DNA from: Kiritimatiellia bacterium
Lineage (GTDB): Bacteria > Verrucomicrobiota > Kiritimatiellia > RFP12 > UBA1067
Assembly: GCA_017613085.1 (NCBI GenBank)
Contig: JAGAEL010000154.1
Location: 1 to 44,881, forward strand
Direction: 5' to 3'
DNA: 44,881 nucleotides
A model generated the notes under the pieces. It searched no databases. It saw nothing but the letters and a program-made list of their open reading frames with translations, and was not told the DNA's origin. The position numbers and the translations under genes were made by a program. Of this stretch, positions 1 through 28,817 are shown one piece after another. Positions within the stretch are counted from its first letter, which is position 1; each line of letters begins with the position of its first letter.

Positions 1-2780
1 GACACCGGGCGATTCGGAACAACTTCGTCACGGCTACAGATCTTGTAGACCGGTTCAGGCGACGAAATGATGCTACGCCGCCGCGCAAGGAGAGTCCCAG
101 GCGTCAGTTTCGCCACAAAAGTTTCAGAATCAGCTTTGAGAAGAACCGATTTCTGATCCCTCATTGCCGAGAACACACCCCATTCGTTCCGAATGTCTTC
201 GGCTGCTGGTTTTTCCGTCTGAATAGTCCAGTTTTGGACAAAGCCGCCAGAGAGCGCATAATAGAGAGCCGCGCCGACAACCGTTACCGTTTTTGCATCG
301 GCGATAAATCCATCGTCATTCGTGAAGGGATACCACTGCCCCGGTCTAAACGAACGAGCAAAGACCAACCGTTCCTCTTCAAGAGGAAGCATATCTCTGG
401 CCATTTGGCGCATGTGCGGCTGTTCGGACGTCTTTCCGCTGAAAACAACCATGTCAACCTCGTAAGCGGCTGCGTAAAGTGCGCAACTGCGGAAGAGAGG
501 CGCAAATGTTTCTTCCATCAAAGAGGCGATTGCCGCCGAATCGAAAGAAAAGCGCGGTTGTTCGATCTCTATTCTGAGTTCCTCACCTCCCTTTGAAAGC
601 AACTCATTGAACTCCTGCCAGTTCGCAGGTGAAATCCCCGCGTCCTGGGCTGAAAACTGCCGAACGATATGCCCTGGCCTCGTGTTAGAGAGACAGTAAG
701 TCGCAAGAGGAATGAGACACGTCCTCACGATACGGCTACGGACGGCTTGCTGGTCCGGTGCGGCAGCCGCTCGAGCAAATAACGTCGAAAGGCGTAACGC
801 AAGGGGATCCCGATTGCGGACAAGCGGACCTAGAACCACCTTCTCAATGATTCTCTTGAGAAGGTCGTCGCCCGCAAGTGCCTGCCCGTCTTTAAACAGA
901 AGCTTGTTCGATAGATCGTTGATACCTGTTCCTGTTTGGCCACAATCACGATATTCGAGAATCGAGATATCCGTTGTACCGCCACCAATATCAAAGTTCA
1001 TCACGCGAATCGTATCGGCTCCGTCTTCGCCACCCCGATGACGCCCCATTGTCGCAATCCAGTCACCAACGGTCTGTCCCGGATAACGAATCGTTTCCGA
1101 GAAGAGGAACGGTAGCTGGCCTGCGACCGCTTCATCCGGGCTTTGTTCGCGCTTGACAAGCTCTAGACGCAAGGGGGAATCAACACCGTTACGCACGTTT
1201 ACCGCAGAGAAAATGTCCAAGGCATCTTCGCAACACTTGCGATAGGTCTCAACCTCCTTGTCTGTCCACCCGGAAGGATAAGTGACAAGAACCTTACGAA
1301 ATCGGCGTGGTACGAAGGCAAGACCTTCCTTGAACGAATCGTTCGCCTGTACCATCGCTCGCTCCAAGAGATGAAGAAGAAACCAAGTAAGCGTAGCCTG
1401 GCGAGGATAACGAGGACTTTCTGGGTAGGGGTCTGGACGCTCTGTGGCCGAGATCTCATCCGAAAGACTCCTCCGCGAGACCTTTCCTGTTTCTTCGTCA
1501 AGGAATCGGCACAAATCGCCCTGCAATTTCGGCAAGAAAGCCGCGCCTTTCGGTTTCTCATCATATTGAGGATCCCATTCATTAAGAAGCATTGACCAGT
1601 CCAAAACCGAAGGTCTATCATCCCAGTAGAACCGCTTTGGAGAACTCTGCTGTATCAAAGCACCAGTCTCGACAAGGTTACGCGCATACGGCCGATGGAA
1701 TTGACGATAGGCGGCATCACCAACGAGTACAGGTGAAATCTGCATGAACATCTGAGGGATTCGTTCGATTACGGAGCCAGTCACCACTTTTTCTTTTCTA
1801 CGGAACGGCCAATACCCAGTAGTCTGAGTCTCGACATGGACATCCCACTCGCGCAAGAGAAGATCAGGTTCCTTGGAATCGATACGTGTCCGATAACGCT
1901 GATGATCCAATTCATGCAAAACAAACCACGAATCTGCAATACCGGCTTCTACGTCATCTACTGACCCAAACTCCCCAGACAATGGATCCGGCTTGATTCG
2001 AAGCGGCTTGAAGTTCTGACGAAATTGCAACGGTGGAAAAGTCAGATTTTTTATATAGTCGAAAAGCAGTGCCGATGTGCGGGTGTTCCCCAGATCAAGC
2101 ACAAGGTCAACATCACGCGTTGCACCTGCCGGTTGGACGAACACAAGTTCGATACTAAGGTTTCCAAGATCTAGCTTTTCGTCGTTTGCAATCTCGTCAA
2201 AATCAAAACCTTCGAAACGTACGGGGAACTTCAAAGGGAAGACCGTCCCTGCAACAACTCCAACGAACGGTGAATCACCGCGTCGAAGAGAACGGCCCGC
2301 CTCCGCCGATTCGAGGGCCAGCCTTTTATCGTCTGCCGAAAGCGCGTTCCGCTGATGAAAAAGGCCTCGGTCGTAAACGCCAGATGCCCCCCCCTTGGCC
2401 TCTCCATCGGCCGTATTGGTCTCTATGAACAACCATATTCCACGCAATGTACAGACATTTCCATCGGCCAAGGTCCAACACTTCTCCCCCAACCGAAATC
2501 GGAGCCATTTGTACATCTCCGTGAGTTTGAACGGACATCCGTCATTACTTGTCGTATTGTAGACTTTGTCGAGCATCCCCTTTGCATTTTCAGGAATCAC
2601 AGACTCCCACTCTTCTATTTCACGAATCGCCTCAAGAAGGTCTGCAGATGGTCGTTGGGCTTCTGTCGGAACCGCAAAATTTTCAGACTTGCAAAGCGGC
2701 ACAAAAGATCGCTGCAATCCCGTATCGAGAAAGACACGGATTGACTTGCGGTGCGGATTGCCATTATCAATATCACTCAT
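1..2780 (-). CDS. Large actin/Hsp70-fold (ASKHA) ATPase, tentatively SrfB-like. The C-terminus lies beyond the left window edge; at least 926 codons are present.
   Basis: Hand translation of the minus strand from the ATG at 2780-2778 (MSDIDNGNPHRKSIRVFLDTG...) stays open down to position 1. It is absent from the ORF track only because no stop codon lies in the window. A GGGAGA RBS (2787-2792) sits 6 nt upstream. It has a phosphate-1-like DLGNTRT motif (2076-2096, residue 229) and a phosphate-2 DIGGGTTD motif (969-992, residue 597). A VVFSGKTSEQP segment (about 420-460) resembles the adenosine motif. All ORFs listed in the other frames of this region are short. Confidence 0.85.
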   Translation of the reverse strand, partial: MSDIDNGNPHRKSIRVFLDTGLQRSFVPLCKSENFAVPTEAQRPSADLLEAIREIEEWESVIPENAKGMLDKVYNTTSNDGCPFKLTEMYKWLRFRLGEKCWTLADGNVCTLRGIWLFIETNTADGEAKGGASGVYDRGLFHQRNALSADDKRLALESAEAGRSLRRGDSPFVGVVAGTVFPLKFPVRFEGFDFDEIANDEKLDLGNLSIELVFVQPAGATRDVDLVLDLGNTRTSALLFDYIKNLTFPPLQFRQNFKPLRIKPDPLSGEFGSVDDVEAGIADSWFVLHELDHQRYRTRIDSKEPDLLLREWDVHVETQTTGYWPFRRKEKVVTGSVIERIPQMFMQISPVLVGDAAYRQFHRPYARNLVETGALIQQSSPKRFYWDDRPSVLDWSMLLNEWDPQYDEKPKGAAFLPKLQGDLCRFLDEETGKVSRRSLSDEISATERPDPYPESPRYPRQATLTWFLLHLLERAMVQANDSFKEGLAFVPRRFRKVLVTYPSGWTDKEVETYRKCCEDALDIFSAVNVRNGVDSPLRLELVKREQSPDEAVAGQLPFLFSETIRYPGQTVGDWIATMGRHRGGEDGADTIRVMNFDIGGGTTDISILEYRDCGQTGTGINDLSNKLLFKDGQALAGDDLLKRIIEKVVLGPLVRNRDPLALRLSTLFARAAAAPDQQAVRSRIVRTCLIPLATYCLSNTRPGHIVRQFSAQDAGISPANWQEFNELLSKGGEELRIEIEQPRFSFDSAAIASLMEETFAPLFRSCALYAAAYEVDMVVFSGKTSEQPHMRQMARDMLPLEEERLVFARSFRPGQWYPFTNDDGFIADAKTVTVVGAALYYALSGGFVQNWTIQTEKPAAEDIRNEWGVFSAMRDQKSVLLKADSETFVAKLTPGTLLARRRSIISSPEPVYKICSRDEVVPNRPV

Positions 2781-2809
2781 AAGAAATCTCCCGGTGTTGT
2801 AAACTGTGA

Positions 2810-5425
2810 TTAGAATTGGGCTGCAAGTGCATCCAAAAGGGTGCGAAGCTCTGTATCACCCGGTTGCGGTGGCCGAGCACTGGCTTTGGCGTTTTCCGAA
2901 AGATCGTCCAATCGGTTCAGAAGCGGCTCGATAACTGTCTTCCAGTGAGGCGACGATTCCCGATCTGTCGACTCCTCGACAAGCCCTGCAAGCAAAGTCC
3001 TAAGGTAAGTAGTGTCGGCCTCGCCCGGCCGTGTCGTAGAGACTCTGCGCCATGTGCCGCCACGAAGCATATTCCCAAATGCAACGGCGAATGGGAATCG
3101 TGCGGCATCAGCCGTATCATGGTCTGCGATACGACCAAGATTAAGTCGGAGGAACTCTCCAAGCCCCCCAGGCTTACGGTCAAGACGCACATTGTCGCGC
3201 AGCGTGCAGAGCAATTCCCGCTGATGTACAACATCCAATACAGGATGGCCTTCTACCCGCCGTTCAGCATCATCGAACCAATGTTTGACCTGATCCTTGA
3301 GCCAGCCATCAGCGACGTCACCATCTCGAACATTTCGCGGAACAGGATCAAAGATATCACGCGGAGCTGAAAACAAATCTCGGAGGAATTGCGCAAGACT
3401 TGCATAGTCTAGCGACGTGTCACCGTCCTCGATCTTCGACAACGCATCTCGGACATTTTTAGCCGATTCACCCAGCGATGCGCGGCGAGCGTCAAGGTTA
3501 GCTTCTTCTGTAGACGGCAACTGTCTCGCCAAGGCATCGGCGAGAATGGCCCACTCCTTCTTGAGGAGTTCGCCACAACGGATGCGTCTTGTTTCTGGAC
3601 AGACGGAGGCCGCCACTTCACGTAGCATGCGGTCGGTTCCACCGTCATCACCAAATACAGCGTCAATATCCTCCACTTTAAGTCCGGTCGAATCCATGAA
3701 TGGTGCGCAATCGGAAATCTTCCCGACAATATCACCCCGCCTCTCAATGGCGTCATTTTTAATCGGGCAGAATTTTGGATATGTGGTGACAAACCAACGA
3801 CAGGTTTCCTTCCCTGCGAACAAGAGCATCTCGATGCTCCTCGTCGCATACTGCGAGAACGTCGGCGTTACCCCGTTGAGTAAAACGGTGTTAATCGGAT
3901 CTGCAAAGAACGTCAGATCAAGGAACATGGGTAATGGTGCCGGCATTCCCTTTCGCCACCCCGACTCAAATGACTGGAACCACTTTCGAATTCCACTTCC
4001 TAGGATATCCGATTGCGCAGGATAAACGTCCAAGGCACTATTGAGAACAACGAACGAATCAATGCCATAACCGTCAATATGCCCATAGATGACGCACTGT
4101 GTACGGCCATCTTTAAGAACGTTTTTGTAGAACTGTAGATCCGTGAGAACATCCGGATGAATCTTGCTATCACTGTCTGTCTGCCCCGTCGACCCGCGAT
4201 TCTTTCGTCCCAAGCCTGGGAAGTCGAGAAGATCATGTGTTTCGAGGAGATCAAGGAGTGCGCTCTTATCTGGTCGATTTAGAACTTCGTACCGAACTGG
4301 AACAACGAGCTCCGAACACAACGCTTGAAAAGCACCAAATGCTTCTCCTGAAATGGCCGCAGCGGATGGTCGATCACCAATGCCAACGCGAATCGCTCCC
4401 GACGACGAATCTCTTTCCCATGTGATTCTTGAAAGGGTTTCTTTTGTCTTGGGATCAGGATTCTCGCAGTTCTTTGTTCCGCCAAAGAGTCGTTCCATCG
4501 TTCCAATATCAAGGACAAGCGCAGCGACACGAGGTGACAAAAGTATCTTGGAATAGCCCTTCCATTCGTGGTCAAGTTGAGTTCGAAGGGTCTCAATTCG
4601 GTCAAAAAATGCCGTTAGCTTTGAGGCACTATCCCAAAGCAACTCAGCCACATAGGCACGTGCGGCTGATTCATTTGACACCAAATGCGCTGCCGACACA
4701 AGGGCAGGGCGAACTTTCCTCGTCCAATCGCCGCTTCTGAAAAGATTGTTGAACCGATCTTCCGAAGAAAGTCTGTCAATCACATCTGCAACATCCCGGA
4801 GCCATTGGCAGGCCGATGGGTTAGGTGGAACATTGACCCCAGCGGCTTTTTCTGCCAGTTGTTTCAGAAACTCGTCCTTGTTGTATCGGATGATTTCGAC
4901 CGTTGCAGGATAGCACTCCTTAAGGTACCCCAAGGCGATAGCATGAAGTATCTCCTTGCGGGGAGCCAGACGAAATTCAACTGGGTAGTCTCTATCAGGA
5001 GGATTCTCGTCCGATGCAAGTGTGTAGCGGGTCGCCACACCAGAAGCATCCCCTTTGTTGTTAAACGGATTGAAACCTACAGTTGCAGGGAATAGTGTCT
5101 CCATATTTATGCCGAATCCCTCAGGTGGAGAAAAGCGTACAGGCGTCGCCGGATTCCACGTAAGAGCCGAGTCTGACCCATCTGGTGACTCGCCATCAAG
5201 ATAACGGCTCAATAAGGTAGACTTGCCCGTCTGGGATGGACCCCAGAGTGCAATTGTCGACTTTGAAGATAGGCTCTTGCGAAGAGTCTCGATTCGTTCA
5301 GCAGAATGCAAAACGGGATCAAACCAATCTCCTATGGATATCTTTCGCAAAGCACGATCTGGGTCAGCAGGATCCGATCCACGCAGAACGCCATGAGTCC
5401 AATACCACTTTGTTAATTCTTCCAT
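2810..5425 (-). CDS. P-loop NTPase (GTPase-like), 871 aa, tentatively SrfC / putative-virulence-factor family
   Basis: Uninterrupted 871-aa ORF. An AAGGAG RBS sits 4 nt upstream of the ATG at 5425. Walker A is GPSQTGKST (5216-5242, K68). A candidate DxxG appears in LLDFPGL (4214-4225, D401). The segment GDASGVATRYT...DYPVEFRL after the P-loop matches my recollection of SrfC-family proteins; this is from memory, not a database search. I saw no canonical NKxD motif. Confidence 0.85.
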   Translation of the reverse strand: MEELTKWYWTHGVLRGSDPADPDRALRKISIGDWFDPVLHSAERIETLRKSLSSKSTIALWGPSQTGKSTLLSRYLDGESPDGSDSALTWNPATPVRFSPPEGFGINMETLFPATVGFNPFNNKGDASGVATRYTLASDENPPDRDYPVEFRLAPRKEILHAIALGYLKECYPATVEIIRYNKDEFLKQLAEKAAGVNVPPNPSACQWLRDVADVIDRLSSEDRFNNLFRSGDWTRKVRPALVSAAHLVSNESAARAYVAELLWDSASKLTAFFDRIETLRTQLDHEWKGYSKILLSPRVAALVLDIGTMERLFGGTKNCENPDPKTKETLSRITWERDSSSGAIRVGIGDRPSAAAISGEAFGAFQALCSELVVPVRYEVLNRPDKSALLDLLETHDLLDFPGLGRKNRGSTGQTDSDSKIHPDVLTDLQFYKNVLKDGRTQCVIYGHIDGYGIDSFVVLNSALDVYPAQSDILGSGIRKWFQSFESGWRKGMPAPLPMFLDLTFFADPINTVLLNGVTPTFSQYATRSIEMLLFAGKETCRWFVTTYPKFCPIKNDAIERRGDIVGKISDCAPFMDSTGLKVEDIDAVFGDDGGTDRMLREVAASVCPETRRIRCGELLKKEWAILADALARQLPSTEEANLDARRASLGESAKNVRDALSKIEDGDTSLDYASLAQFLRDLFSAPRDIFDPVPRNVRDGDVADGWLKDQVKHWFDDAERRVEGHPVLDVVHQRELLCTLRDNVRLDRKPGGLGEFLRLNLGRIADHDTADAARFPFAVAFGNMLRGGTWRRVSTTRPGEADTTYLRTLLAGLVEESTDRESSPHWKTVIEPLLNRLDDLSENAKASARPPQPGDTELRTLLDALAAQF

Positions 5426-5593
5426 GGTGCTCCTTTGGACAAAATATGGCAGACGCCATTCTCGTTACATTCTTGGCGGGCTATAACCGATAACGACAAC
5501 GCACCAAGAATCGTCTTGAAACAAACGCATCGGCGACGTAGCAACATTTTCTTATCGATTCCTTTCCGTTCTCCTTTCCTAACATCGGCGGGG

Positions 5594-5630
5594 CGGAAAA
5601 CGAAAACCTCCTCCGATACATCGGAGGAGG
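5594..5630 (-). terminator. Intrinsic terminator, probably ending the uppP transcript
   Basis: Perfect 10-bp stem (CCTCCTCCGA 5607-5616, TCGGAGGAGG 5621-5630) with a 4-nt loop. On the minus strand it is followed by TTTTCGTTTTC (complement of 5596-5606). It lies 263 nt downstream of the uppP stop. Confidence 0.55.
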
Positions 5631-5892
5631 CACTTGGGAGAACCGAGAAAGAAGAAGACAACAAAACTGCACCAGCAGTGTTCTCTTCGTACGTCTTTCC
5701 GGTGAAGTTTCTCAGGCTTCCATCCGACGCAGTATTACACGTGTTACAATTGAGAGCATGATTCTTTGGAGGGCTCTACACGGATACCAAAACAACAGCT
5801 CTCAAAAACAACGTTCGTAGTATATACACTCCCCTGGCAGATTGCAACGCTTATTTCGCGTAAATTTCGATAAAGAACCACCTATACCAAAA

Positions 5893-6684
5893 CTACATCA
5901 GGCAGAGTACGGCAATACCCACCGCCGCGCAGTAGAGGCCGAACACCCAGAACCTACCGCTCCGCAACAAGCGCACCAGCAGGGCGAGCGAGGCGTACCC
6001 GATGACGGCGGAGAAGAGGCATCCCGACGCCAGAACCCAGGTGGGGAAAACCTCGGTCACGCTCGCGCCCTCCGCGCCGCTCGTATGTCCGAGCAGGGAA
6101 AGCACGGCCGCGCCCGCCAGCAACGGCAGACACATCAGGAACGAGAACTCCGCCGCCTCGTCCGGCGAAACACCCGACATACGGGCAGAGGAAATCGTCA
6201 TCCCCGAACGGCTCACGCCCGGCAGGATCGCGATCGCCTGGGCGATGCCGATCAGCACCGCCCGCGCCGGTGTGACCTTCCCGGTTCCCCCCGGTATCCA
6301 GCGCAACGCCGTCAGCACGAAACCGGTGAACAACAGGAAACCGCCGACCGCGGCCGCGTTCTCGTAGAAGGCATCGATACGGTCTTTGCAGAGAAAGTAG
6401 AAGAAAACGGCCGGCACGGCCGAAAGCGCGATGCACAGCACCGTCCGCCACGCATCCCCGTCGCCTTTGAACACCCCGGCAATCAACCGCCCGATCGTCT
6501 TGCGGTAATAGGCGAGGATGGAAAGCATGGTGCCGACGTGAAGCACGACCTCAACCGTCTCGCCGGGCGACTCCACCCGCAACAGTTTCTGGAGAAGCAC
6601 GAGATGCCCCGAACTACTGACCGGCAGGAATTCCGTAACCCCCTGCAAGACGGCCAACCATACCATGTTCAAAAAATTCTCCAT
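5893..6684 (-). CDS. uppP: Undecaprenyl-diphosphate phosphatase
   Basis: N-terminus MENFLNMVWLAVLQGVTEFLPVSSSGHLVLL carries the UppP/BacA signature (TEFLPVSSxGH), and the protein is polytopic. The start is moved from the track value (6786) to the ATG at 6684, because the upstream extension would read through the tRNA gene and its terminator. Confidence 0.9.
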   Translation of the reverse strand: MENFLNMVWLAVLQGVTEFLPVSSSGHLVLLQKLLRVESPGETVEVVLHVGTMLSILAYYRKTIGRLIAGVFKGDGDAWRTVLCIALSAVPAVFFYFLCKDRIDAFYENAAAVGGFLLFTGFVLTALRWIPGGTGKVTPARAVLIGIAQAIAILPGVSRSGMTISSARMSGVSPDEAAEFSFLMCLPLLAGAAVLSLLGHTSGAEGASVTEVFPTWVLASGCLFSAVIGYASLALLVRLLRSGRFWVFGLYCAAVGIAVLCLM

Positions 6685-6694
6685 AGCCGCAATC

Positions 6695-6728
6695 CTAAAA
6701 AACAGGGGCCGTCCTCTCGAACGGCCCC
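6695..6728 (-). terminator. Intrinsic terminator directly after tRNA-Asp
   Basis: 8-bp GC stem (GGGGCCGT 6705-6712, ACGGCCCC 6721-6728) with an 8-nt loop. On the minus strand it is followed by TGTTTTTT (complement of 6697-6704). It starts 4 nt after the tRNA CCA end. Confidence 0.7.
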
Positions 6729-6731
6729 AGA

Positions 6732-6808
6732 TGGCGAGGACGATGGGGCTCGAACCCACGACCTCCGGATCGACAGTCCGGTGCACTAACCAATTGTGCT
6801 ACGTCCCC
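6732..6808 (-). tRNA. tRNA-Asp (anticodon GUC), 77 nt, CCA encoded
   Basis: Hand-folded cloverleaf. Acceptor GGGGACG/CGTCCTC with one G-U pair. D stem GCAC/GTGC. Anticodon stem CCGGA/TCCGG with loop CTGTCGA. Variable loop AGGTC. T stem GTGGG/CCCAT with loop TTCGAGC. Discriminator G followed by CCA. Confidence 0.93.
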
Positions 6809-6825
6809 GCGCAAAAGTGGATTTC

Positions 6826-6854
6826 ACTCTAGCACAGCCCAAGGCTTTTGGCAA
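6826..6854 (-). promoter_or_regulatory. Sigma70-like promoter for tRNA-Asp
   Basis: On the minus strand: TTGCCA (6849-6854), a 17-nt spacer, then TAGAGT (6826-6831). An A/T-rich stretch (AAATTTTTTGAAATTTTA) lies just upstream. The -10 element ends 17 nt before the mature tRNA 5' end. Confidence 0.5.
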
Positions 6855-6941
6855 GCGTAAAATTTCAAAAAATTTGGAGCGGGGCGTGAACCGCCACGAC
6901 AGGCGACGTGCGGCACGGCCCGCCCCGTCCCAAGCCGCACG

Positions 6942-8108
6942 TCACAGATCGCGGAGATTCGGCGCCGTCGGTCTGGGCGGTTTCTTCTGCACATCGAGCG
7001 CCTTTTTCACGGGGGCGTCCGCCGGCAGCCAGCCGCCGGCGACCAGCATATCCACAAAACGCTGGAAGGACCGGAAGCGTGCGGCATCGGCGAAAGACCC
7101 CTTCCCCGCCTTGATGGCTTCCACGCAGGCGGCGCCGGCTTCGTCAAGGCGTTTCCGCAACGCATCGTCCGGTTCGTAGCAGAACGATTCCCAAAGACGG
7201 ATGAAACGTTCGGCGGGGTCCTGCGTCCCGTTCGCGAACGCGAGCGATTCGCGGGCGAGCTTGCGGCGCAGCGCGGCGACGTCGCCGTGCTTGACCCACG
7301 GGCCGCCGTTCACGGTATCCGCGCAACGCGGCGGGATACGGCGGATCCAGATGTTACGGAACGGCACGGGGTGGCCGTGATCCTGCAGCAGGATCGGCCC
7401 TTTCGTCTCTTTCGGGTGCGCACAACGCCGGCACCAGCTGGTATGCCCCTGTAACGGGAAACTGTCCTGCACGAGGACGCCGTTGAAAAATATGGTGACG
7501 GAACCGGGATCGACGAGACGTTTCCCCTCCCAGGCCGGCGGATGGAACACGATGTCGTAGCTCTGCCATTCGCCCGGCTTGCGGCAGGGCTGCACAAGGG
7601 GCGGATTCTCGCCGTACACCGCGCCGGCCTGCCCGTCGGCGTAGTTCGCCGGTTTCCAGGGCGAGCGCGAAGGCCTCACGGCGGACGAGTCGAGGATCTG
7701 GATCTCGTACTTGCCCATAAGGAAAACGCCTGAATTACCCCACCCGTAGAGATCGTCCACGGGCGTCTTCCACTCGATATGGAGCTGGCAGTCGGCGAAC
7801 GCCTCCTTTGTGGCCACGCTGCCGGAACCGGGCGTACAGATGAACTCGCCCTCCTTGACAGTCCACTTGGTCGGCTTGCCGCCGCCGGCCGTCCAGTTCC
7901 GGACGACGCTCTCCATCGTGCCGTCAAAAAGCACGACCGCGTCGCCCGGCGGCTTTCCGGCGGGCGCGTCGATCTTCACCGGATCGGGACGGTTCACGTC
8001 GTGTACGGACCAGGCGTGGGTGTCGTCCGGGCGGTCGCCCGAAGGTTCGGCCAGCGCGGCGAGCACCGCGAACGCGGCGAGCGGCAACAGCAGCGTTTTT
8101 CTTTTCAT
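6942..8108 (-). CDS. Secreted DUF1080 (3-keto-disaccharide hydrolase-like) domain protein
   Basis: Signal peptide MKRKTLLLPLAAFAVLAALA. DUF1080-type blocks are present (NSGVFLMGKYEIQILD, LQDHGHPVPFRNIWIRRI). The start is trimmed to the ATG at 8108; an AGGAG RBS overlaps the upstream stop. The 632-aa track ORF is an Arg/Gly-rich upstream extension overlapping the previous gene. Confidence 0.85.
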   Translation of the reverse strand: MKRKTLLLPLAAFAVLAALAEPSGDRPDDTHAWSVHDVNRPDPVKIDAPAGKPPGDAVVLFDGTMESVVRNWTAGGGKPTKWTVKEGEFICTPGSGSVATKEAFADCQLHIEWKTPVDDLYGWGNSGVFLMGKYEIQILDSSAVRPSRSPWKPANYADGQAGAVYGENPPLVQPCRKPGEWQSYDIVFHPPAWEGKRLVDPGSVTIFFNGVLVQDSFPLQGHTSWCRRCAHPKETKGPILLQDHGHPVPFRNIWIRRIPPRCADTVNGGPWVKHGDVAALRRKLARESLAFANGTQDPAERFIRLWESFCYEPDDALRKRLDEAGAACVEAIKAGKGSFADAARFRSFQRFVDMLVAGGWLPADAPVKKALDVQKKPPRPTAPNLRDL

Positions 8109-8119
8109 GGTTGACGCTC

Positions 8120-9442
8120 CTAGAGTTTCGAGCCGTCGAGACGTTCGCCGGGACGCAGCTGGGCGAGGTTGCCCATAAATCCCCATGCGGTCATGGGGGC
8201 GGCCATCGAAAAGGCGCTGCGCGTCTTCCCCCCGCCGAGGCAGCAGTCGATGTACTGGTGATAGTGCGAAGGGGCGGGACCGACGCTTGGCAGCGCGGGG
8301 GGCGTGGAACCGTCTTTCATCACGTAGCACGGCGCAACGCCGTAGTGCGTGGAGAGAAGCCAGCCCTTCGTGCCTTCGACCACGCGCCCCTGTTCGGGTA
8401 GTCGCTTCATCGACGTGCGCGCCGCGATATCCTGCAGGAACGCGGGCGGCAGGAACTTCGGCGGGATGCGGAACGCGACATGGCCGAAACCGTCGCACCA
8501 CTCCACCGTGAACGGTTTCATGCCGCTCGCCTTCACGCCGGGCATCGTCCACGTGACGTGCGACATCGAAGGCCAGAACTGTTCGCGCTGCGCGTCCGTC
8601 CACGCATCCGCCGAGACCTCCGCCGTCACGTCCGTCGGTATCGTCGCGCCGAGGTTCATGCCGAGCCACACCGGGCTCATCAGGTGAAGCCCCAGGTCGC
8701 CAAGCCACGACGTTCCGAACGCGCGCCACTTGCGCCATGCGCGGGGGTGGTAGCCCTCGCCGTACGGGCGTTCTTTCACGGGGCCGAGCCAGAGTTTCCA
8801 TTCGAGCGTCTTCGGCACGGGCAGTTCGGGCAGCGGCCATGTGTAGTATCCCGGCTTCGGCTCATGGCGCCGCGTGGAGAAGAGCCACACGTGGCGGACT
8901 TCGCCGATCACGCCCGAAGCGAGCGCGGCGACCGTCTGCCGGTCGCACTCCCATGCGGCGATCTGCGTCCCCAACTGTGTGACCGCGCCTTTCTCGGCGG
9001 CAAGTTTCCCGATGCGGCGGCAGTCGGCGAGGTCGTGGCAGAGCGGTTTCTGCGCATAGACGTTCAAGCCCCGTTTCAACGCCTCCAGGATGTACTGCGC
9101 GTGCGTGTGGTCGGGCGTCGAGACGTTCACGGAATCGATGCGGTCGCCCTCCTTCGCAAACATCTCGAAGGCGTCGCGGTAGACGCGGGCATCGGGAAAC
9201 CGTTTCCGCACGGCGTCGAGATACCGCGAATCGACATCGCAGAGCGCCGTGATGTGGATGTCGCGGTGGCTGGCCAGTTCGGAGAGGTCGTACCGCGCCT
9301 GGTTGGCGCAACCGATCGCGGCGTGGGAAAGCAGTTCGTTCGGATGCCTCCGTTTCAGAACCGCCGGGAAGCCGCTGAACGGCGCAACCGCCGCGCCGGC
9401 GGCAAGTTTGAGGAATCCGCGCTTGGTCACATTCGTCTTCAT
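8120..9442 (-). CDS. Gfo/Idh/MocA-family oxidoreductase with a twin-arginine-type signal
   Basis: N-terminus MKTNVTKRGFLKLAAGAAVAPF. It has an N-terminal Rossmann region and the STPDHTH motif typical of the family. The start at 9442 follows a GGGGAGGGGA RBS. The track ORF extends spuriously into the upstream gene. Confidence 0.88.
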   Translation of the reverse strand: MKTNVTKRGFLKLAAGAAVAPFSGFPAVLKRRHPNELLSHAAIGCANQARYDLSELASHRDIHITALCDVDSRYLDAVRKRFPDARVYRDAFEMFAKEGDRIDSVNVSTPDHTHAQYILEALKRGLNVYAQKPLCHDLADCRRIGKLAAEKGAVTQLGTQIAAWECDRQTVAALASGVIGEVRHVWLFSTRRHEPKPGYYTWPLPELPVPKTLEWKLWLGPVKERPYGEGYHPRAWRKWRAFGTSWLGDLGLHLMSPVWLGMNLGATIPTDVTAEVSADAWTDAQREQFWPSMSHVTWTMPGVKASGMKPFTVEWCDGFGHVAFRIPPKFLPPAFLQDIAARTSMKRLPEQGRVVEGTKGWLLSTHYGVAPCYVMKDGSTPPALPSVGPAPSHYHQYIDCCLGGGKTRSAFSMAAPMTAWGFMGNLAQLRPGERLDGSKL

Positions 9443-15564: not shown

Positions 15565-18168
15565 TTACCAGCTCGAAGCTGAGCGATTTCTTCGCGTCAC
15601 CGTGTGGACAATTCCGCCGAACAGTAATACGGACGCCCCGAGGGCGAATGTGCGTAACCAGACCTCAAGGGACAGGGGGACCGTCTGGAAGAGGTTTCCG
15701 CCGTACTGGACCATCAAGACCTGCAAGGCCGCCACAAGCCCCATCACGCCGAGGAAACTCCTGCTGCGGAAGAGGCCTCCGAACGCCGATCCACCGGCGC
15801 GGACACTCCGCGCGTTGACGGCGTTGAAGAGTTGAAGCCAGACAAAGCAGTTGAACACGGAGGTGGCTTTCTGCGCTTCCGGCGCCCCTAACCAGTTCGT
15901 CGTCTGGACGAACAACATGACCGCGACGAACGCCATCCCCATCGCGGCGATGTTGACCGCCATCGTCCGCGTCACAAACGCTTCGTCCGTCTTCTTCGGC
16001 GGTATCGACATCACTTCCGGGCGCGGCGGCTCCAGCCCGAACGCCAGCGCGGCGAGGGTGTCCATAATCAGGTTCAGCCAGAGGAACTGCAACACCGTCA
16101 ACGGCGTTTGCGCGAATCCGGCCGACGGCCAGAGCAATGCGGCAAGGGGACTGATAAACGCGAAGAACAGCGCGGAGACGTTCACCGTCAGCTGGAACTG
16201 CAGGAACTTCTGCAGGTTCTCATAGAGCGTCCGTCCCCATTTGACAGCGCGGACGATGCTCCCAAAGTTATCATCGGTCAACACGATATCGCTTACCGAT
16301 TTCGCCACATCCGTCCCTCGGACACCCATCGCGATTCCGACATCCGCCTGTTTCAGGGCGGGGGCATCGTTCGTCCCGTCGCCGGTCATCGCGACGACTT
16401 CGCCCTCCTCCTGCAACAGGCGCACGAGCCGCGCCTTGGTGTCGGGCCTCGCCCGCGCAATTACGTTCACGGACTTCAACAGGACGTGCAGTTCTTCGTC
16501 ACTTTTCGCCGCGAACGTCTCCCCCGTCAACACCTCCGTCACGGATTTCGGAGGCAACAGTCCTGCGTCACGGGCGATAGACCGTGCGGTAAGCGGATGG
16601 TCGCCGGTGATCATCATCACCCGGATTCCCGCCTTGCCGCACGACTGCACCGCCTCGGCCACATCCGGGCGGAGCGGATCGGACAGGCCGACAATACCGA
16701 GAAGCGTCAATCCCTCCTCCGGCGCGTCTCCATCCCGTTCTTTTTTATAGGCGACGGCCAACGTCCGCACCGCCCGTTCCGCCAGTTCGCGCACGATGCG
16801 TTCCGCCCCTGCGGTATCCCCTTCCGTACAGAGGGGGAATACCCGTTCCGGCGCACCTTTGGTAAAGACGTAACCGCCCGCCACCGTGGTCATCCGTTTA
16901 CGGTCTGCCGAAAACGGGATACGCCGATCGACCGGCGTTCCGGCGCGGAGATCCGTATACCGTACCCCCTGCTCGAAAAACCAGCGCAGGACGGCCGCTT
17001 CCGTGGCGTTACCGACCGCGTGTCCCTCCGCATCGATCTCGGCGGTCGAGTTGAGGGCGAAACTGCGGGCGAAAAGCTCGAAAGCCGCATCGGATTTCGC
17101 CTGTCCGAGCGTCGCCCCGGAGTAACGCGCCCCGCCGAACCAGAGGGTATCGACGCTCATCCGGTTCATCGTGAGCGTGCCGGTCTTGTCCGTGCAGATC
17201 ACCGTCGCGCTGCCGATCGTCTCCGCCGCGACCATTTTCCGGACAAGATTGTTGTCCTCCCGTATTTTCCGCATCCCGAGGCCGAGCGTGACGAAAACCG
17301 CCAGCGGCAACCCTTCCGGGACGGCGACGACCACGATCGTCACCGCGACCATGAACGCGCGGAACAACGCGCCCGCCACACCCGCGAACGTATAGTGGGC
17401 TATCGAGTTGAGGGCGCACCCCGAAAGGACGGCGAAGATCAAGACGGCCGCCGCCATGCCCCAGACGCTGATTTGCTGCGACAGCTTCTTCAAGCGTTTC
17501 TGCAACGGCGTCAACGGTTCCCCCTCCTTCGCCGCCTCGCCGCGCAGGGAGGCGGCGAGACGTCCGAGTTCGGTATTGTCGCCGACCGCCGTCACACAGG
17601 CGACCGCCTGTCCGGAGAGGACGTATGTCCCCCCGGTGAGACGGTCTCCCTGCCGTTCTTTCCGCACCGGCATCTGTTCCCCCGTCATCAGGGATTCATC
17701 CACCTCGAACTCCGCCCCCGAAAGATAACGTGCGTCCGCCGGAATCTTGTCCCCCGTCTCCAGATGCACAATGTCGCCCACGACGACCTTGCTGTTCGAA
17801 ATCAATAGGAAACGGGTGTCGCGGATCACCTTTACCTTGATTTCATCGGTATCGCGTTTCAACAGTTCAAACGCCTTGTCGGCTTTCAACTCGCTCCACA
17901 GCGTTCCGCAGGTCGCGACGAAGACGGCGAGCAGGATGGCCACGCCTTCCCAAGGGAAGTTCCCCCTCGTGACCTCCATCAGGATGGAAACGGCGGCACA
18001 GACGCAAAGGATGAGGACGGTCAGATCGGTGAATTTTTCCAGGAAGAGGGAAAGCAGGGATTTTTTCTTCGGAGGCGTAAGCGTGTTCGAGCCGTACCGT
18101 TTACGGCTTTCAAAGACCTCGGCGGAACTGAGGCCGGTTTTCGAATCGGTGGAAGGTTGCGTGTTCAT
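15565..18168 (-). CDS. P-type cation-transporting ATPase (P2, Ca2+/Mg2+-type)
   Basis: It has the phosphorylation motif ICTDKTGTLT, plus MITGDHPLTA and TGDGTNDAPALKQADVGIAMG. There is an N-terminal cation-ATPase-N-like segment and about 10 hydrophobic helices. The start is set at the ATG at 18168 (MNTQPS), which forms an ATGA overlap with the stop of the upstream ABC gene. The track start at 18183 is an alternative. Confidence 0.9.
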   Translation of the reverse strand: MNTQPSTDSKTGLSSAEVFESRKRYGSNTLTPPKKKSLLSLFLEKFTDLTVLILCVCAAVSILMEVTRGNFPWEGVAILLAVFVATCGTLWSELKADKAFELLKRDTDEIKVKVIRDTRFLLISNSKVVVGDIVHLETGDKIPADARYLSGAEFEVDESLMTGEQMPVRKERQGDRLTGGTYVLSGQAVACVTAVGDNTELGRLAASLRGEAAKEGEPLTPLQKRLKKLSQQISVWGMAAAVLIFAVLSGCALNSIAHYTFAGVAGALFRAFMVAVTIVVVAVPEGLPLAVFVTLGLGMRKIREDNNLVRKMVAAETIGSATVICTDKTGTLTMNRMSVDTLWFGGARYSGATLGQAKSDAAFELFARSFALNSTAEIDAEGHAVGNATEAAVLRWFFEQGVRYTDLRAGTPVDRRIPFSADRKRMTTVAGGYVFTKGAPERVFPLCTEGDTAGAERIVRELAERAVRTLAVAYKKERDGDAPEEGLTLLGIVGLSDPLRPDVAEAVQSCGKAGIRVMMITGDHPLTARSIARDAGLLPPKSVTEVLTGETFAAKSDEELHVLLKSVNVIARARPDTKARLVRLLQEEGEVVAMTGDGTNDAPALKQADVGIAMGVRGTDVAKSVSDIVLTDDNFGSIVRAVKWGRTLYENLQKFLQFQLTVNVSALFFAFISPLAALLWPSAGFAQTPLTVLQFLWLNLIMDTLAALAFGLEPPRPEVMSIPPKKTDEAFVTRTMAVNIAAMGMAFVAVMLFVQTTNWLGAPEAQKATSVFNCFVWLQLFNAVNARSVRAGGSAFGGLFRSRSFLGVMGLVAALQVLMVQYGGNLFQTVPLSLEVWLRTFALGASVLLFGGIVHTVTRRNRSASSW

Positions 18169-18926
18169 CCGGGCGTGACACAATAAGAGGGTGAGTCGGG
18201 AAGTTGGAAAAGGGAGACGGGACAGCCGTACACACGCGACAGGATTTCCGGACGGAAGAGGTCGGCGACACCTCCGTCCGCCGCGATCCGCCCATCGCGC
18301 AACAACGCGATCCGGGGGAAATAGCGGCTTGCGAAGGTGAGGTCGTGTACGGCGGCGACGATGGCGACACCTTTCTCCTCATTGAGACGAAGCAGGATCG
18401 ACGCGAGGCGCACGTGGTGCGCCAGGTCAAGGTTCGCGGCGGGTTCGTCGAGCAGGAGGACTTCGGGACGCGCCGCAAGGGCCATTGCAAGGGAGGCGAG
18501 GCGGCGTTCGCCGCCGCTCAGCTCCGTCACCGGGCGGTCTTCGAGAGGCAGAAGCCCGGTCGCCTCCAACGCTTCGTCAACCGCCTCGCGGTCTTCACGC
18601 GAAGGATTCCCGAACCTCGGAAGCCAGGGAGTCCTGCCCAGCGTCACGAACGCGCGCACGGTGAAGGGAACGTCACGCGGCGTCTCCTGGGGGACCGTCC
18701 GCAGACGACGCGCACGCGGTTCCGGAATCGTCACGCGACCGGAAAACGGGGCGAGCGCGCCGGAAAGGACGCGCAGCAGCGTGGACTTTCCGGCGCCGTT
18801 CGGCCCTGCCAAGGCAATCCGCTCGCCGGGATTCACGCGGAAGGTCACGCCTTGCAGAACGGTGCGGTCGCGGTAACCGGCCGTAACGTCTTCCAACGCG
18901 GAAATAGGCTGTCCCGTCCTCTCCAT
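18165..18926 (-). CDS. ABC transporter ATP-binding protein (FepC/BtuD/ZnuC-like), with no adjacent permease
   Basis: Walker A GPNGAGKST, signature LSGGERR, Walker B LLLDEP, and an H-loop (AAVHDL). Confidence 0.88.
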   Translation of the reverse strand: MERTGQPISALEDVTAGYRDRTVLQGVTFRVNPGERIALAGPNGAGKSTLLRVLSGALAPFSGRVTIPEPRARRLRTVPQETPRDVPFTVRAFVTLGRTPWLPRFGNPSREDREAVDEALEATGLLPLEDRPVTELSGGERRLASLAMALAARPEVLLLDEPAANLDLAHHVRLASILLRLNEEKGVAIVAAVHDLTFASRYFPRIALLRDGRIAADGGVADLFRPEILSRVYGCPVSLFQLPDSPSYCVTPG

Positions 18927-18929
18927 ACG

Positions 18930-21083
18930 TTATCCACCCGTCACCTTTCCCGTCATGCTGACCGTTAAATCCTCCGTCGCGCCCTTACGCGAGCGCAACG
19001 CGACATTCGCGAATCCCCATTCGGCAAGCGAGAGGAGAAGCGCCAGCCAAAGCACCAGTTCGGTGAACGAACGCCCGTTCCGGCGTTCTTCGACAAGCCT
19101 CGCCAGTTCCTCCGCATCGGCCGCGACAACGCAATTCTTGAACCCCGTACATTCCGCCACGTCGTCCGGCGACACGGGATCGAGCTTCGACTCCGCCCGG
19201 TCGGTGTTGACCGCCAGCACGGGTTCATCGGAAGCGTCCGCTTTCGTCCGCAGGTAGATGCCGGGTTCGGGAAGTTCTTCCAGGACGAAGTTCCGCCCCC
19301 CGGTTTCTTTCACGAGCAGCGGCGCACCGGAAGGAACCGTGATTTTGTCCTCCTCGCGGTAGTTCGGGATCGCCTCGTTGGCCGGCATCGAAGCGCCCAG
19401 CGTCACGTGCGCGGGCTGGACCGACGCGCCGCTTCCCTGGCGGATCAGCTGGTGTACGACCGGCACGAAAAACGCCGTCAACGGGAACGTGCTCCACTCG
19501 CGTGTCGCCCCGACGGTGAAAAGGAAACAACGGCCGCGTCCCACCGCACGGCCGAGCAGGAACGGCGTCCCCTCCCCTGCGGTAACGAGCGTCGCCGCCT
19601 GTTCCGCCGGTTCGCCGTCGATCCGCAGGATACGTTTGAGCGCGATGGTCGGCATCGTCCCCGGCGGCAACGGCATCGTGAAATCAACCGCCTGCCCTTC
19701 CTTGCGGGGCAAGCGGCGCAAGAAACGCGCGGCATCGGCCGACGCGACGGAGGCGACCTCGCCCGGTTGCGCGGGGAGGATTTTGAACGTGGCATAAGCG
19801 GAAGGATCGCACGTCTCGCCGGGGAAGAAGACGGCCACGCCGCCGTTCTGCACGTAGGTTTCGATCCGCAGGACGTCCTGTCCGGAAAGCGGGAGCGCGT
19901 CGCAGAAGAAGACCGCCTGGAAATCGCGCAGATCGACCGTGTCCAGCGCACCGGGGGCGACCTGCCGCACACTGTCATCCGACGCGCCGGGAGCAAGCGC
20001 GACGCGGAGGTAGCGCACGGCTTCTTCGCCGCCCACGACCAGCACCGGGAGCCGGCGGTTCACCCGCAGCAGAAACTGGAAGGCGTCATCCTCCGCCAGC
20101 GCGTCCTTCGGCGTGGAGACGGACGCGACGTGAACGCCGGCTTCCAGGTTGTTCAAGACGAATTCGACGGAGGCTTCCGTTCCCGGTTCCGCCGTGACGG
20201 AACGGCTGCCGTTTTCCTGTCCGTCAATCTTAAGCGTGACGGTGACGGGTTTCGGCGCGCCGGTACGCCCGACGCGCACGGCGACACGCGCACTCTGCCC
20301 CTGCAACATCAACGGCGGGGAAACCTTGACATGCGCGGGGAAAGCGTTCTCCGAGCTGACCGCGCCGGCGAGCAGCGTGAAGAGCGCGACCTTGTCCCGG
20401 TTTTCGCGGGAAATGCGTTCCTGTCCATCCCCGTCTTCTTTCGTTTTGGAAGAGCGGAAACCGTCCCACGACAACGCCTGTCCGTCCGTCAACACGAACA
20501 CTTCTTTCTCGGTCTTCTCCTTCAAGGCGTCGAGCGTCCGAATGGCGGCGGCGACGGCCTCGTCGAGTTTCGCGGAGACGTGCGTAGACGACAACGCCTG
20601 GATCGCGCCCACGACCGTCGCGTGCTCCGTTGTCGGCTTCTCGATGACCGGCACCGCCGTAGACGCGGCAAGATAGACACAGACGCGGTCGCCCGGATGC
20701 AACGCCTGCACAATCTGCACGGCGGCATCTTTGCAGAGCGACCAGACCTTGCCGCGATCCATTTCGTAGTTCATGCTGTAGGAGCCGTCGATCACGATCG
20801 CCACGTCGCGGCGCGAGCGGCCGAGAAAGGAATCCGCCCCCGCGACGTTGCGGAGTACGGGGCGGGCGAACGCCAGCGCCAACGCGACCAGAAGCGCGGT
20901 GCGCAGCAGCCACAGCAGGAAATTTTCAAACCGCACACGGCTGGAGGAACGCTTCTGCGCCGCCTTCAGGAACCGGATGGTCGGGAACGGCGTGTTCACC
21001 GTCCGCCGCCGCTGGAACATGTGGAGCATGAGCGGGATACCGGCGGCGAGTAACGCCCAGAGAAACATGGGGGATCCAAACAT
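18930..21083 (-). CDS. BatA-domain / von Willebrand factor A domain membrane protein
   Basis: N-terminal double-TM BatA-type segment (FLWALLAAGIPLMLHMFQRRR...FLLWLLRTALLVALALAF). VWA MIDAS-like motif VIDGSYSM. A C-terminal TM helix is present. The stop lies 3 nt before the ABC gene start. Confidence 0.85.
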   Translation of the reverse strand: MFGSPMFLWALLAAGIPLMLHMFQRRRTVNTPFPTIRFLKAAQKRSSSRVRFENFLLWLLRTALLVALALAFARPVLRNVAGADSFLGRSRRDVAIVIDGSYSMNYEMDRGKVWSLCKDAAVQIVQALHPGDRVCVYLAASTAVPVIEKPTTEHATVVGAIQALSSTHVSAKLDEAVAAAIRTLDALKEKTEKEVFVLTDGQALSWDGFRSSKTKEDGDGQERISRENRDKVALFTLLAGAVSSENAFPAHVKVSPPLMLQGQSARVAVRVGRTGAPKPVTVTLKIDGQENGSRSVTAEPGTEASVEFVLNNLEAGVHVASVSTPKDALAEDDAFQFLLRVNRRLPVLVVGGEEAVRYLRVALAPGASDDSVRQVAPGALDTVDLRDFQAVFFCDALPLSGQDVLRIETYVQNGGVAVFFPGETCDPSAYATFKILPAQPGEVASVASADAARFLRRLPRKEGQAVDFTMPLPPGTMPTIALKRILRIDGEPAEQAATLVTAGEGTPFLLGRAVGRGRCFLFTVGATREWSTFPLTAFFVPVVHQLIRQGSGASVQPAHVTLGASMPANEAIPNYREEDKITVPSGAPLLVKETGGRNFVLEELPEPGIYLRTKADASDEPVLAVNTDRAESKLDPVSPDDVAECTGFKNCVVAADAEELARLVEERRNGRSFTELVLWLALLLSLAEWGFANVALRSRKGATEDLTVSMTGKVTGG

Positions 21084-28815: not shown

Positions 28816-28817
28816 CC

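Follow-up and report, generated by a model that had tools for sequence, protein, structure and literature searches.

A five-gene Srf-type island of a Kiritimatiellia bacterium that joins predicted dynamin-like and Hsp70-like NTPases to putative membrane proteins

SrfB and SrfC have been called virulence factors since their first description, and we know of no biochemical function for either. A 44,881-nt stretch of DNA from a Kiritimatiellia bacterium (contig JAGAEL010000154.1 of assembly GCA_017613085.1; here, the window) carries a relative of each at its left end, encoded by neighboring genes on the minus strand, as are all Srf features of the window. The question raised by this locus is what kind of system such a pair forms in an organism of this type. 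A sequence-only reading of the window had proposed a system of two nucleoside triphosphatases (NTPases), a SrfC-like GTPase followed by a SrfB-like actin-fold ATPase. As described below, the two genes open a five-gene operon whose remaining members are predicted membrane proteins, one of them a putative periplasmic protease. On balance we lean towards reading it as a variant of a Srf trans-membrane NTPase machine, specific to the Planctomycetes, Verrucomicrobia and Chlamydiae (PVC) group of which the Kiritimatiellia are members, with a periplasmic protease module and a likely role in envelope stress or conflict.

The NTPase pair and three further genes

The first protein of the pair has 871 residues, a P-loop GPSQTGKST at G62-T70 (with K68) and a switch II DxPG that reads DFPG (D401-G404), all in agreement with what had been reported of this open reading frame (ORF). 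Both family assignments of the sequence-only reading hold as well, Pfam SrfB and Virul_Fac lying above their curated cut-offs and far beyond chance. For the SrfC-like protein Virul_Fac/SrfC (PF10139) gives 44.4 bits against a cut-off of 28.1 (E=9.7e-12), with an alignment that spans only residues 119-286, corresponding to model positions 87-243 of 878, and NCBIfam gives no match; judged from these scores it is a marginal, deep-branching member of the family. A search of 5.8 billion proteins returned 106 clusters related to it, all of ∼860 aa, and an exhaustive profile search of 1.84 billion representative proteins gave more than 1,000 SrfC-like clusters (1,031 at E≤1e-3 and 274 at E≤1e-30), describing a superfamily that by these searches is modest in size, yet widespread. 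The segments W61-G-P-S-Q-x-G-K-S-T70 and D401-x-P-G404 show no variation among 39 aligned homologues, and the spacing between P-loop and DxPG is 333 residues in the PVC clade as opposed to ∼270 in canonical SrfC.

Searching the PDB with the sequence profile of the SrfC-like protein gave nothing significant, and for that reason the fold assignments reported here rest on AlphaFold2 (AF2) models and Foldseek. The AF2 model, built on the alignment of 39 homologues, has a predicted local distance difference score (pLDDT) of 89.5 and a predicted template modeling score (pTM) of 0.81, and its PDB matches belong mostly to the dynamin superfamily, with SynDLP first (E=6e-7), followed by Dnm1, IniA, BDLP, Drp1, MxA, the Campylobacter DLP pair, EHD and mitofusin. 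TM-scores are low (∼0.2), as expected for long multi-domain proteins in differing conformations, and we therefore speak of a dynamin-like architecture and not of a close structural match. The model thus supports the dynamin-like fold suggested earlier, predicting a dynamin-like P-loop NTPase with a large GTPase-type domain and a long helical stalk. Bacterial dynamin-like proteins (BDLP, SynDLP, IniA, DynA, Campylobacter DLP1/2, LeoABC) share this predicted fold and the switch II DxPG; the SrfC-like protein differs from them in lacking detectable sequence similarity, a conserved G4 motif and a predicted hydrophobic paddle or transmembrane segment (a hydropathy scan predicted none), and in having an Hsp70-like ATPase as its partner in place of a second dynamin-like protein.

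The second ORF had been described as at least 926 aa long, with the motifs DLGNTRT (D229) and DIGGGTTD (D597), all of which is borne out; its full length, recovered from contig L002 and from P0123, is 984 aa. Pfam SrfB (PF07520) matches with E=6e-60; against a cut-off of 27.1 bits the fragment in the window scores 203.7 and the complete protein 207.9, while NCBIfam yields only chance-level DnaK motif matches. Three motifs of the acetate and sugar kinase/Hsp70/actin (ASKHA) superfamily can be located: phosphate-1 (D229xGNxR), phosphate-2 (D597IGGGTxD) and adenosine (S781GKxSE). D229-x-G-N-x-R, D597-I-G-G-G-T-x-D and G782 are invariant in both of the alignments that were made (29 and 34 sequences), and the complete S781-G-K-x-S-E is invariant in the first of these, with 29 sequences. 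The profile of this protein retrieves only ASKHA entries from the PDB (MreB, Hsc70, DnaK, actin, EutJ), all sub-threshold and by way of the phosphate-2 motif, and hhalign aligns its adenosine motif to that of HscC. Foldseek matches of the AF2 model (pLDDT 87.3, pTM 0.89) reach E=5e-17 with DnaK/BiP, 177 of them at E≤1e-3; TM-scores extend to ∼0.6 against isolated nucleotide-binding domains, and the alignments run over full-length DnaK/BiP. In terms of its model, then, the protein is specifically Hsp70/DnaK-like, with the nucleotide-binding domain fold and all three ASKHA motifs, so that of the earlier label "actin-fold ATPase" the ASKHA fold stands and the word actin is right only at the superfamily level. 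Relative to Hsp70/DnaK the SrfB-like protein is longer by ∼215 residues at its N-terminus and has large insertions (368 aa) that separate phosphate-1 from phosphate-2, and sequence similarity is limited to the motifs. Gene calls and scans around the loci revealed neither a J-domain nor a GrpE partner.

The description as a two-NTPase system fails at the left edge of the window, beyond which, as the sequence-only reading had allowed for, longer contigs hold three further co-oriented genes that belong to the same island. In contig L002, with the longest downstream extension, the order is uppP/BacA, the srfC-like gene (871 aa), the srfB-like gene (984 aa), genes of 681, 771 and 468 aa (genes 3, 4 and 5) and an RraA-like gene. 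The island measures ∼12 kb and its five genes are co-oriented, with intergenic gaps of 11-71 nt and a low GC content common to all; GC over exactly these five genes in L002 is 43-60% (mean ∼50%), and 57-62% just past gene 5. Because genes 3-5 are co-oriented, tightly spaced and inside the low-GC segment, the locus is read here from its sequence as a five-gene operon with three predicted membrane proteins, including a putative periplasmic protease, and not as a two-gene module.

Each of the proteins 3-5 has a predicted transmembrane segment. In gene 3 a signal-peptide-like N-terminus and a predicted helix at 142-174 precede ∼370 residues rich in Glu, Ala, Arg and Lys, apparently coiled coil and predicted to be cytoplasmic, and then a conserved C-terminal domain. 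Gene 4 starts with a 190-residue N-domain without a signal peptide, followed by a predicted transmembrane helix (191-220) after Lys/Arg residues. Beyond the helix come a Gly-rich linker, a middle domain and, at the C-terminus, a MarP- and HtrA/DegP-like Trypsin_2 domain (E=5e-17), whose His, Asp, Ser triad is conserved in all aligned relatives. From the topology of the helix and the positive-inside pattern the product is predicted to be bitopic, with the protease facing the periplasm. Gene 5 is coiled-coil-like in its N-terminal part, has one hydrophobic segment and shares 54% identity with the corresponding protein of a related island. Against NCBIfam, Pfam and the PDB, genes 3 and 5 and the N-terminal and middle regions of gene 4 gave chance-level matches only.

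Relatives and canonical Srf systems

A total of 185,579 species genomes were scanned with the P-loop pattern of the clade, ORFs were called, and these were searched with the five island proteins. The pattern matched 41 loci, nearly all in metagenome-assembled genomes (MAGs) of Kiritimatiellae, Lentisphaeria, Verrucomicrobiota and Planctomycetota. The srfC-like and srfB-like genes are adjacent in 37 of 37 non-redundant loci, so the two families do co-occur elsewhere, and in 36 of these the srfC-like gene lies directly before the srfB-like gene on the same strand, usually with gaps of -4 to ∼100 nt. The C-then-B order that had been noted in the window is thus real and clade-wide; its sole exception is a B-then-C locus of the canonical type in Candidatus Adiutrix. 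A hidden Markov model (HMM) of the gene-4 N-domain matched 39 ORFs (E 3e-80 to 6e-12), the transmembrane helix usually lying ∼170-235 residues from the start, and almost every locus with enough sequence has such an ORF downstream of the pair. Between it and SrfB there is usually a gene of 350-735 aa, coiled-coil where examined. After the transmembrane helix other loci have Big_5 Ig-like domains, SWM repeats, Sel1 repeats or nothing recognizable.

It is in light of this synteny that the idea of a self-contained two-NTPase module, with unrelated cargo downstream, has to be judged. Only SrfB and SrfC are recognizable by sequence in every locus, as that idea would have it; against this, coiled-coil and N-domain/transmembrane genes follow on the same strand in nearly all loci with enough sequence, the genes of the island itself are separated by 11-71 nt and share a low GC content, and canonical systems also need a bitopic partner, SrfA. 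Conserved synteny already largely refutes a stand-alone pair, and we regard this explanation as highly improbable.

One related island, L060, encodes a SrfC that is 81% identical to that of the window, together with counterparts of all five genes and, between the protease gene and the gene-5 homologue (L060 19937-21232), a second N-domain paralogue without a protease (WRVSRGSKRRLFVLWGYH motif). Locus L010 likewise has two consecutive N-domain proteins.

The canonical srfABC systems (Salmonella enterica, Xenorhabdus stockiae, Haemophilus parainfluenzae) are built from the same families, SrfB and Virul_Fac/SrfC, with adjacent genes. Six canonical SrfC proteins have a G[PAH]SQAGKS P-loop and DxPG, and canonical SrfB has DxGN[ST] and D[IV]GGGT, so that the GPSQxGKS and DxPG of SrfC and both SrfB motifs match those of the window. 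A tblastn search with the SrfB-like protein matched genes annotated as srfB on 143 plasmids, with identities of 22-27%. The order is srfA-srfB-srfC in Rahnella; a Salmonella record has srfA-srfB, with no srfC in its gene table and only a 177-aa ORF after srfB. In alphaproteobacteria a serine protease, SrfA-like, SrfB, SrfC and a transmembrane protein of 320-350 aa follow one another, and in Cereibacter vWA, ABC and FGE genes come after them. On the Runella sp. SP2 plasmid pSP2_1 (L055, 8152-16840) srfB, srfC and an S8 peptidase gene immediately follow BREX-1 pglZ-brxL; the second gene beyond them is weakly like Double-GTPase.

Compared with the canonical order A-B-C or B-C, that of the window clade is C-B-x-A', where A' denotes gene 4. 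The proteins of the window are deeply diverged, being only 21-27% identical to canonical SrfB and SrfC, PVC SrfC has a ∼60-aa insertion between P-loop and DxPG, gene 4 has a trypsin protease in place of the lipocalin-like domain of SrfA, and the island adds coiled-coil membrane proteins and has no vWA or Lol-like ABC neighbors.

Xenorhabdus SrfA, SrfB and SrfC co-precipitate and form a complex, and lysates containing them are cytotoxic and insecticidal (PMC6950479). One might then suppose that the island encodes a multi-component toxin directed against eukaryotes, like the Xenorhabdus SrfABC "tripartite toxin", and leaving the cell by a route such as membrane vesicles; the island does share its protein families with that toxin, and vesicle-mediated export has been proposed for canonical SrfABC (bioRxiv 10.64898/2026.09.18.752743). 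However, identity to canonical SrfB and SrfC is as low as noted above, the hosts, PVC bacteria that are uncultured and represented solely in metagenomes, have no known pathogenic lifestyle, SrfB and SrfC have no secretion signal, gene calls and scans around the loci show no secretion system, and the toxicity data come from crude lysates, which do not define a mechanism. A toxin therefore seems to us quite improbable.

SrfA itself has been described as a bitopic inner-membrane protein with a kinase-like, non-catalytic N-domain, a transmembrane segment at ∼208-250 and a periplasmic lipocalin-like domain, and in an AlphaFold3 model its N-domain (SrfA-N) serves as the platform, first for SrfB and next for SrfC (bioRxiv 10.64898/2026.09.18.752743). 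An N-domain of ∼170-250 aa followed by one transmembrane helix is the layout common to SrfA-like proteins, the alphaproteobacterial proteases and gene 4, and the bitopic partner of canonical systems resembles that of the window in having a cytoplasmic N-domain of ∼200 aa, one transmembrane helix and an extracytoplasmic domain. The statement that no srfA-like gene is present therefore applies only upstream of the pair, since the fourth gene has the architecture of SrfA and possibly also its N-domain.

The plasmid-borne srf loci of alphaproteobacteria (Cereibacter, Mesorhizobium, Methylobacterium) are instructive in this regard. Like the island, they combine SrfB and SrfC with a membrane-anchored HtrA/MarP-like trypsin protease that, as in gene 4, has an N-terminal cytoplasmic domain and one transmembrane helix before the protease; unlike the island, the protease gene is upstream of a separate srfA, in the order protease-A-B-C-D, with vWA, ABC and FGE genes after it in Cereibacter. 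The N-domain of these proteases (plasmids L054, L056, L058) is SrfA-N, with an hhalign probability of 99.3% and E=1e-16 for NCBIfam SrfA_fam, and the N-terminus of the Runella S8 peptidase also matches the SrfA-N HMM (E=3e-19), with no transmembrane segment detected. Because it is fused to differing extracytoplasmic modules in these two cases, SrfA-N appears to be a reusable adaptor domain.

A possible trans-membrane machine

Taken together, the folds of the pair, the bitopic partners and the swappable module point to a trans-membrane NTPase machine. By analogy with the binding of SrfB and SrfC to the SrfA N-domain, the membrane proteins would offer their cytoplasmic domains as docking sites to the two soluble NTPases, giving a machine that spans the inner membrane. 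ATP-driven clamping of the Hsp70-like kind and nucleotide-driven assembly or membrane remodeling of the dynamin-like kind could then be coupled to a periplasmic effector or sensor, here the serine protease. Candidate roles would be membrane repair or vesiculation, or the control or release of the protease upon envelope attack. In evolutionary terms the island would represent a PVC variant of the Srf system with permuted order (C-B-x-A') and a swapped periplasmic module.

The flanks bear on the biological setting. Among 114 ORFs flanking 28 PVC loci the leading families are FHA (5), TerD (4), TerC (4), Ser/Thr kinase (4) and FGE-sulfatase (3), and in Verrucomicrobiota the srfC-srfB pair lies amid TerD/TerC genes. 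Two loci (L008 6218-17978 and L062 5863-19190) have the pair amid TerD, TerC and several unannotated genes of 240-350 aa; in L008 a resolvase, an SNase and an SOS-type polymerase cluster are also close by. Bacterial dynamins are known in membrane repair and phage tolerance, and in view of these roles and of the Ter, FHA-kinase and FGE neighbors, envelope stress or conflict is the most economical reading.

A number of observations weigh against this picture. No G4 motif (N/TKxD) is conserved after G3 in the alignment of 39 SrfC-like sequences, in keeping with the earlier remark that a canonical NKxD is missing, so that of the term "GTPase" the dynamin-like P-loop NTPase stands, with GTP and ATP both as candidate substrates. 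Transmembrane and topology calls were obtained with a simple hydropathy scan only. The trypsin domain occurs in 6 of 73 downstream ORFs, all in the subclade nearest the window (Kiritimatiellia/Lentisphaeria/UBA3750), and so narrow an occurrence rules it out as the universal output. Functional data on Srf proteins are limited to lysates being cytotoxic to animal cells, and these indicate a role of another kind. Finally, the relationship between the gene-4 N-domain and SrfA-N is at most suggestive: the hhalign probability is 84%, 66% or 42% according to the alignment used, in every case by way of an LV(L)WG[YF] block before the transmembrane helix, and NCBIfam SrfA_fam (NF040486) does not match gene 4. 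Linking gene 4 to SrfA through the alphaproteobacterial protease N-domain was also tried, and the link stayed weak, with an hhalign value of 0.3% against the protease-paralogue profile alone. Since the hhalign result depends on the alignment and the NCBIfam model is silent, we claim architectural equivalence of gene 4 with SrfA, and homology only as possible.

The sequence-only reading had also raised the idea of an anti-phage function, which in its most explicit form would be an abortive-infection system in which infection is sensed by the NTPase pair, which then turns on the trypsin-like protease as a killer. There is something to be said for it. The island is mobile and of low GC, with a patchy distribution, the Runella SrfB-SrfC-S8 peptidase cluster adjoins BREX-1, bacterial dynamin-like proteins can protect against phage (PMC8844932), and the trypsin domain of gene 4 resembles the PADLOC protease modules RT-Protease_XI (E=1e-14) and LmuA. 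Conflict systems with a GTPase, an HSP70-family ATPase and variable effectors, including trypsin-like peptidases, have moreover been described in mobile loci (PMC7159879), and these share with the island the logic of GTPase, HSP70-family ATPase and trypsin-like peptidase; they differ in that their GTPases are of the TRAFAC types AP-GTPase and GAP1-N2, often occurring with tubulin, and in that their effectors are cytoplasmic, and the text of that work mentions neither Srf nor dynamin (0 occurrences). The idea has nevertheless fared poorly. PADLOC-DB v2 has no meaningful match for the SrfC-like or SrfB-like protein, and for genes 3-5 and Runella SrfB/SrfC only generic protease or coiled-coil models respond, so that no system model is matched beyond generic domains. 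Restriction-modification, CRISPR and other classic defense genes are not among the top flank families of the 28 PVC loci, the protease is absent from most family members, and its predicted periplasmic location places it away from cytoplasmic targets. Viral contigs and a phage collection hold no relatives, which we count as neutral. An abortive-infection system is, in our estimation, unlikely.

A broader version of the machine would make it a general bacterial "dynamin plus Hsp70" device, in which SrfA-N-type adaptors on bitopic proteins recruit both NTPases. These might pinch, repair or vesiculate the inner membrane and thereby control interchangeable periplasmic modules, namely lipocalin-like in enterobacteria, trypsin in alphaproteobacteria and Kiritimatiellia, S8 peptidase in Runella and Ig-like repeats in Verrucomicrobiota. 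We hold this generalization to be distinctly unlikely; were it true, the PVC clade would be an independent permuted lineage, and the machine a prokaryotic functional analogue of dynamin/Hsc70 in eukaryotic trafficking.

What the PVC-specific machine that we favor offers is a mechanistic frame for these families, consisting of a dynamin-like and Hsp70-like pair, nearly constant bitopic partners and a swappable extracytoplasmic module (lipocalin-like, trypsin, S8, Ig-like). With the PVC clade the system extends beyond animal pathogens, and this speaks against taking "virulence factor" as its primary meaning. Should the machine remodel membranes it would constitute a new class of bacterial dynamin partner system, and should it be a defense or competition module it would be a family that present defense catalogues miss. 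The protein families, the architecture of SrfA and the modeled SrfA-B-C complex (from the preprint) are already known. A literature search on SrfB/SrfC with defense, Hsp70, dynamin or Ter gave nothing relevant besides PMC6950479 and the 2026 SrfA preprint, and in the searchable literature the PVC clade with its permuted order, the regular coiled-coil and N-domain plus transmembrane partners, the trypsin module and the fusion of SrfA-N-type adaptors to interchangeable peptidases appear to be new. The system is not categorically new and should be of interest to specialists in bacterial dynamins, Hsp70-like ATPases and conflict systems.

The island in its genome

That the pair sits on a low-GC island, as had been proposed, is clear from the GC profile of the window, with 49-53% from position 1 to ∼5900 and 59-67% everywhere else. 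The chromosome that carries the island has a GC content of 62-65%. The host is a PVC-type bacterium, as had also been surmised: the NCBI record is a MAG of a Kiritimatiellae bacterium, in which the srfC-like gene is annotated as "hypothetical protein J5985_06855" and its neighbor as "virulence factor SrfB, partial". The other genes of the window are of the housekeeping kind (IleS, GltX, PurL, P-type ATPase, BatA-vWA, glycosyltransferases), and the stretch is thus chromosome and not the backbone of a mobile element. An exact-sequence look-up of the SrfC-like protein led to five contigs, which come from the same organism and match the window at 99.9% identity. One of these, L004, was first taken for the same island in another context and was then rejected, since it is the same locus at 99.9% identity; its gene 3 is broken into two ORFs (6691-8813), a frameshift variant or an assembly error.

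The gene uppP and a tRNA-Asp gene form the chromosomal side of the island boundary, as defined by the GC step. The tRNA gene is separated from the island by one gene, uppP, so that the island does not abut it, and an Rfam scan revealed nothing else. Direct repeats of ≥10 nt were sought at the island ends and none was found, and a degenerate uppP pattern found no match to an island-free insertion site in the JGI metagenomes. The case for insertion therefore comes from GC content and from the different context of L060, whose island has ∼50% GC within surroundings of 58-62% and neighbors other than those of the window (a class II aminoacyl-tRNA synthetase, a sigma factor and a faint Y1-transposase-like gene); this is not the picture of a vertically inherited core locus with native composition. 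We infer that the island is mobile and was acquired horizontally.

These data bear on one more possibility, that of a housekeeping system for membrane remodeling or the cytoskeleton. Complex endomembranes are a known trait of PVC bacteria, hardly any member of the clade lies outside this group, and the pairing of dynamin-like and Hsp70-like proteins echoes eukaryotic membrane trafficking. Against a housekeeping role are the foreign GC content, the non-syntenic locations of close relatives, the fact that only ∼40 of the 185,579 species genomes matched the P-loop pattern of the clade, and the occurrence of homologues on proteobacterial and Bacteroidota plasmids, and we consider it very improbable.

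The features of the window that belong to the island and its boundary are listed in Table 1. The 29-nt gap with GGGAGA that had been described between the two ORFs is confirmed, and by its sequence this spacing is typical of an operon junction. For the stretch upstream of srfC, which had been called a 467-nt non-coding leader, the length is correct; it is not featureless, containing a conserved block, a terminator-like hairpin and the remnant of an ORF. The block, of ∼230 nt (window 5560-5731), is conserved in L060 (72% identity over 185 nt by blastn), and the RNA fold of the leader has a z-score of -4.6. The hairpin could be a terminator of uppP, or an attenuator or small RNA ahead of srfC. 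The counterpart in L060 of the 44-aa ORF is a putative secreted protein or lipoprotein of 133 aa (L060:9622-10023), and the alignment of the window with L060 has a gap of ∼290 nt at this place; given the length of the counterpart, the 44-aa ORF looks like a truncated remnant left by a deletion of this size.

Table 1. Features of the island and its boundary in the window
Feature	Position	Strand	Basis
srfB-like gene, first 926 of 984 codons, cut at the window edge	1..2780	minus	translation
Spacer of 29 nt, GGGAGA ribosome-binding site 6 nt ahead of the srfB ATG (2780)	2781..2809	minus	sequence
srfC-like gene, 871 aa, stop TAA	2810..5425	minus	translation
ORF of 44 aa (MLLRRRCVCFKTILGALSLSVIA...), signal-peptide-like N-terminus, overlaps the srfC start	5413..5547	minus	ORF list
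Leader of 467 nt between uppP and srfC, left end of the low-GC island	5426..5892	minus	sequence
GC-rich hairpin of 11 bp, then TTTCGTTTT (T-run), downstream of the promoter-like site	5606..5631	minus	kept in L060
Sigma-70-like promoter match TTGCAA, 17 nt, TATACT	5819..5847	minus	consensus scan only, 9/12 positions, weak
uppP/BacA, 263 aa, native GC, flank outside the system	5893..6684	minus	Pfam BacA on L001/L002
tRNA-Asp(GTC)	6732-6808	minus	tRNA call; Rfam

Elsewhere in the window a 717-aa protein with BatA-N and vWA domains, of the aerotolerance (Bat) operon type, is encoded at 18930-21083 (minus), adjoined by a P-type cation ATPase gene at 15565-18183. Three tandem genes on the plus strand (24367-33931) encode proteins of 1482, 1188 and 516 aa with TMEM260-like or PMT-like O-mannosyltransferase domains, the first of which also has TPR repeats.

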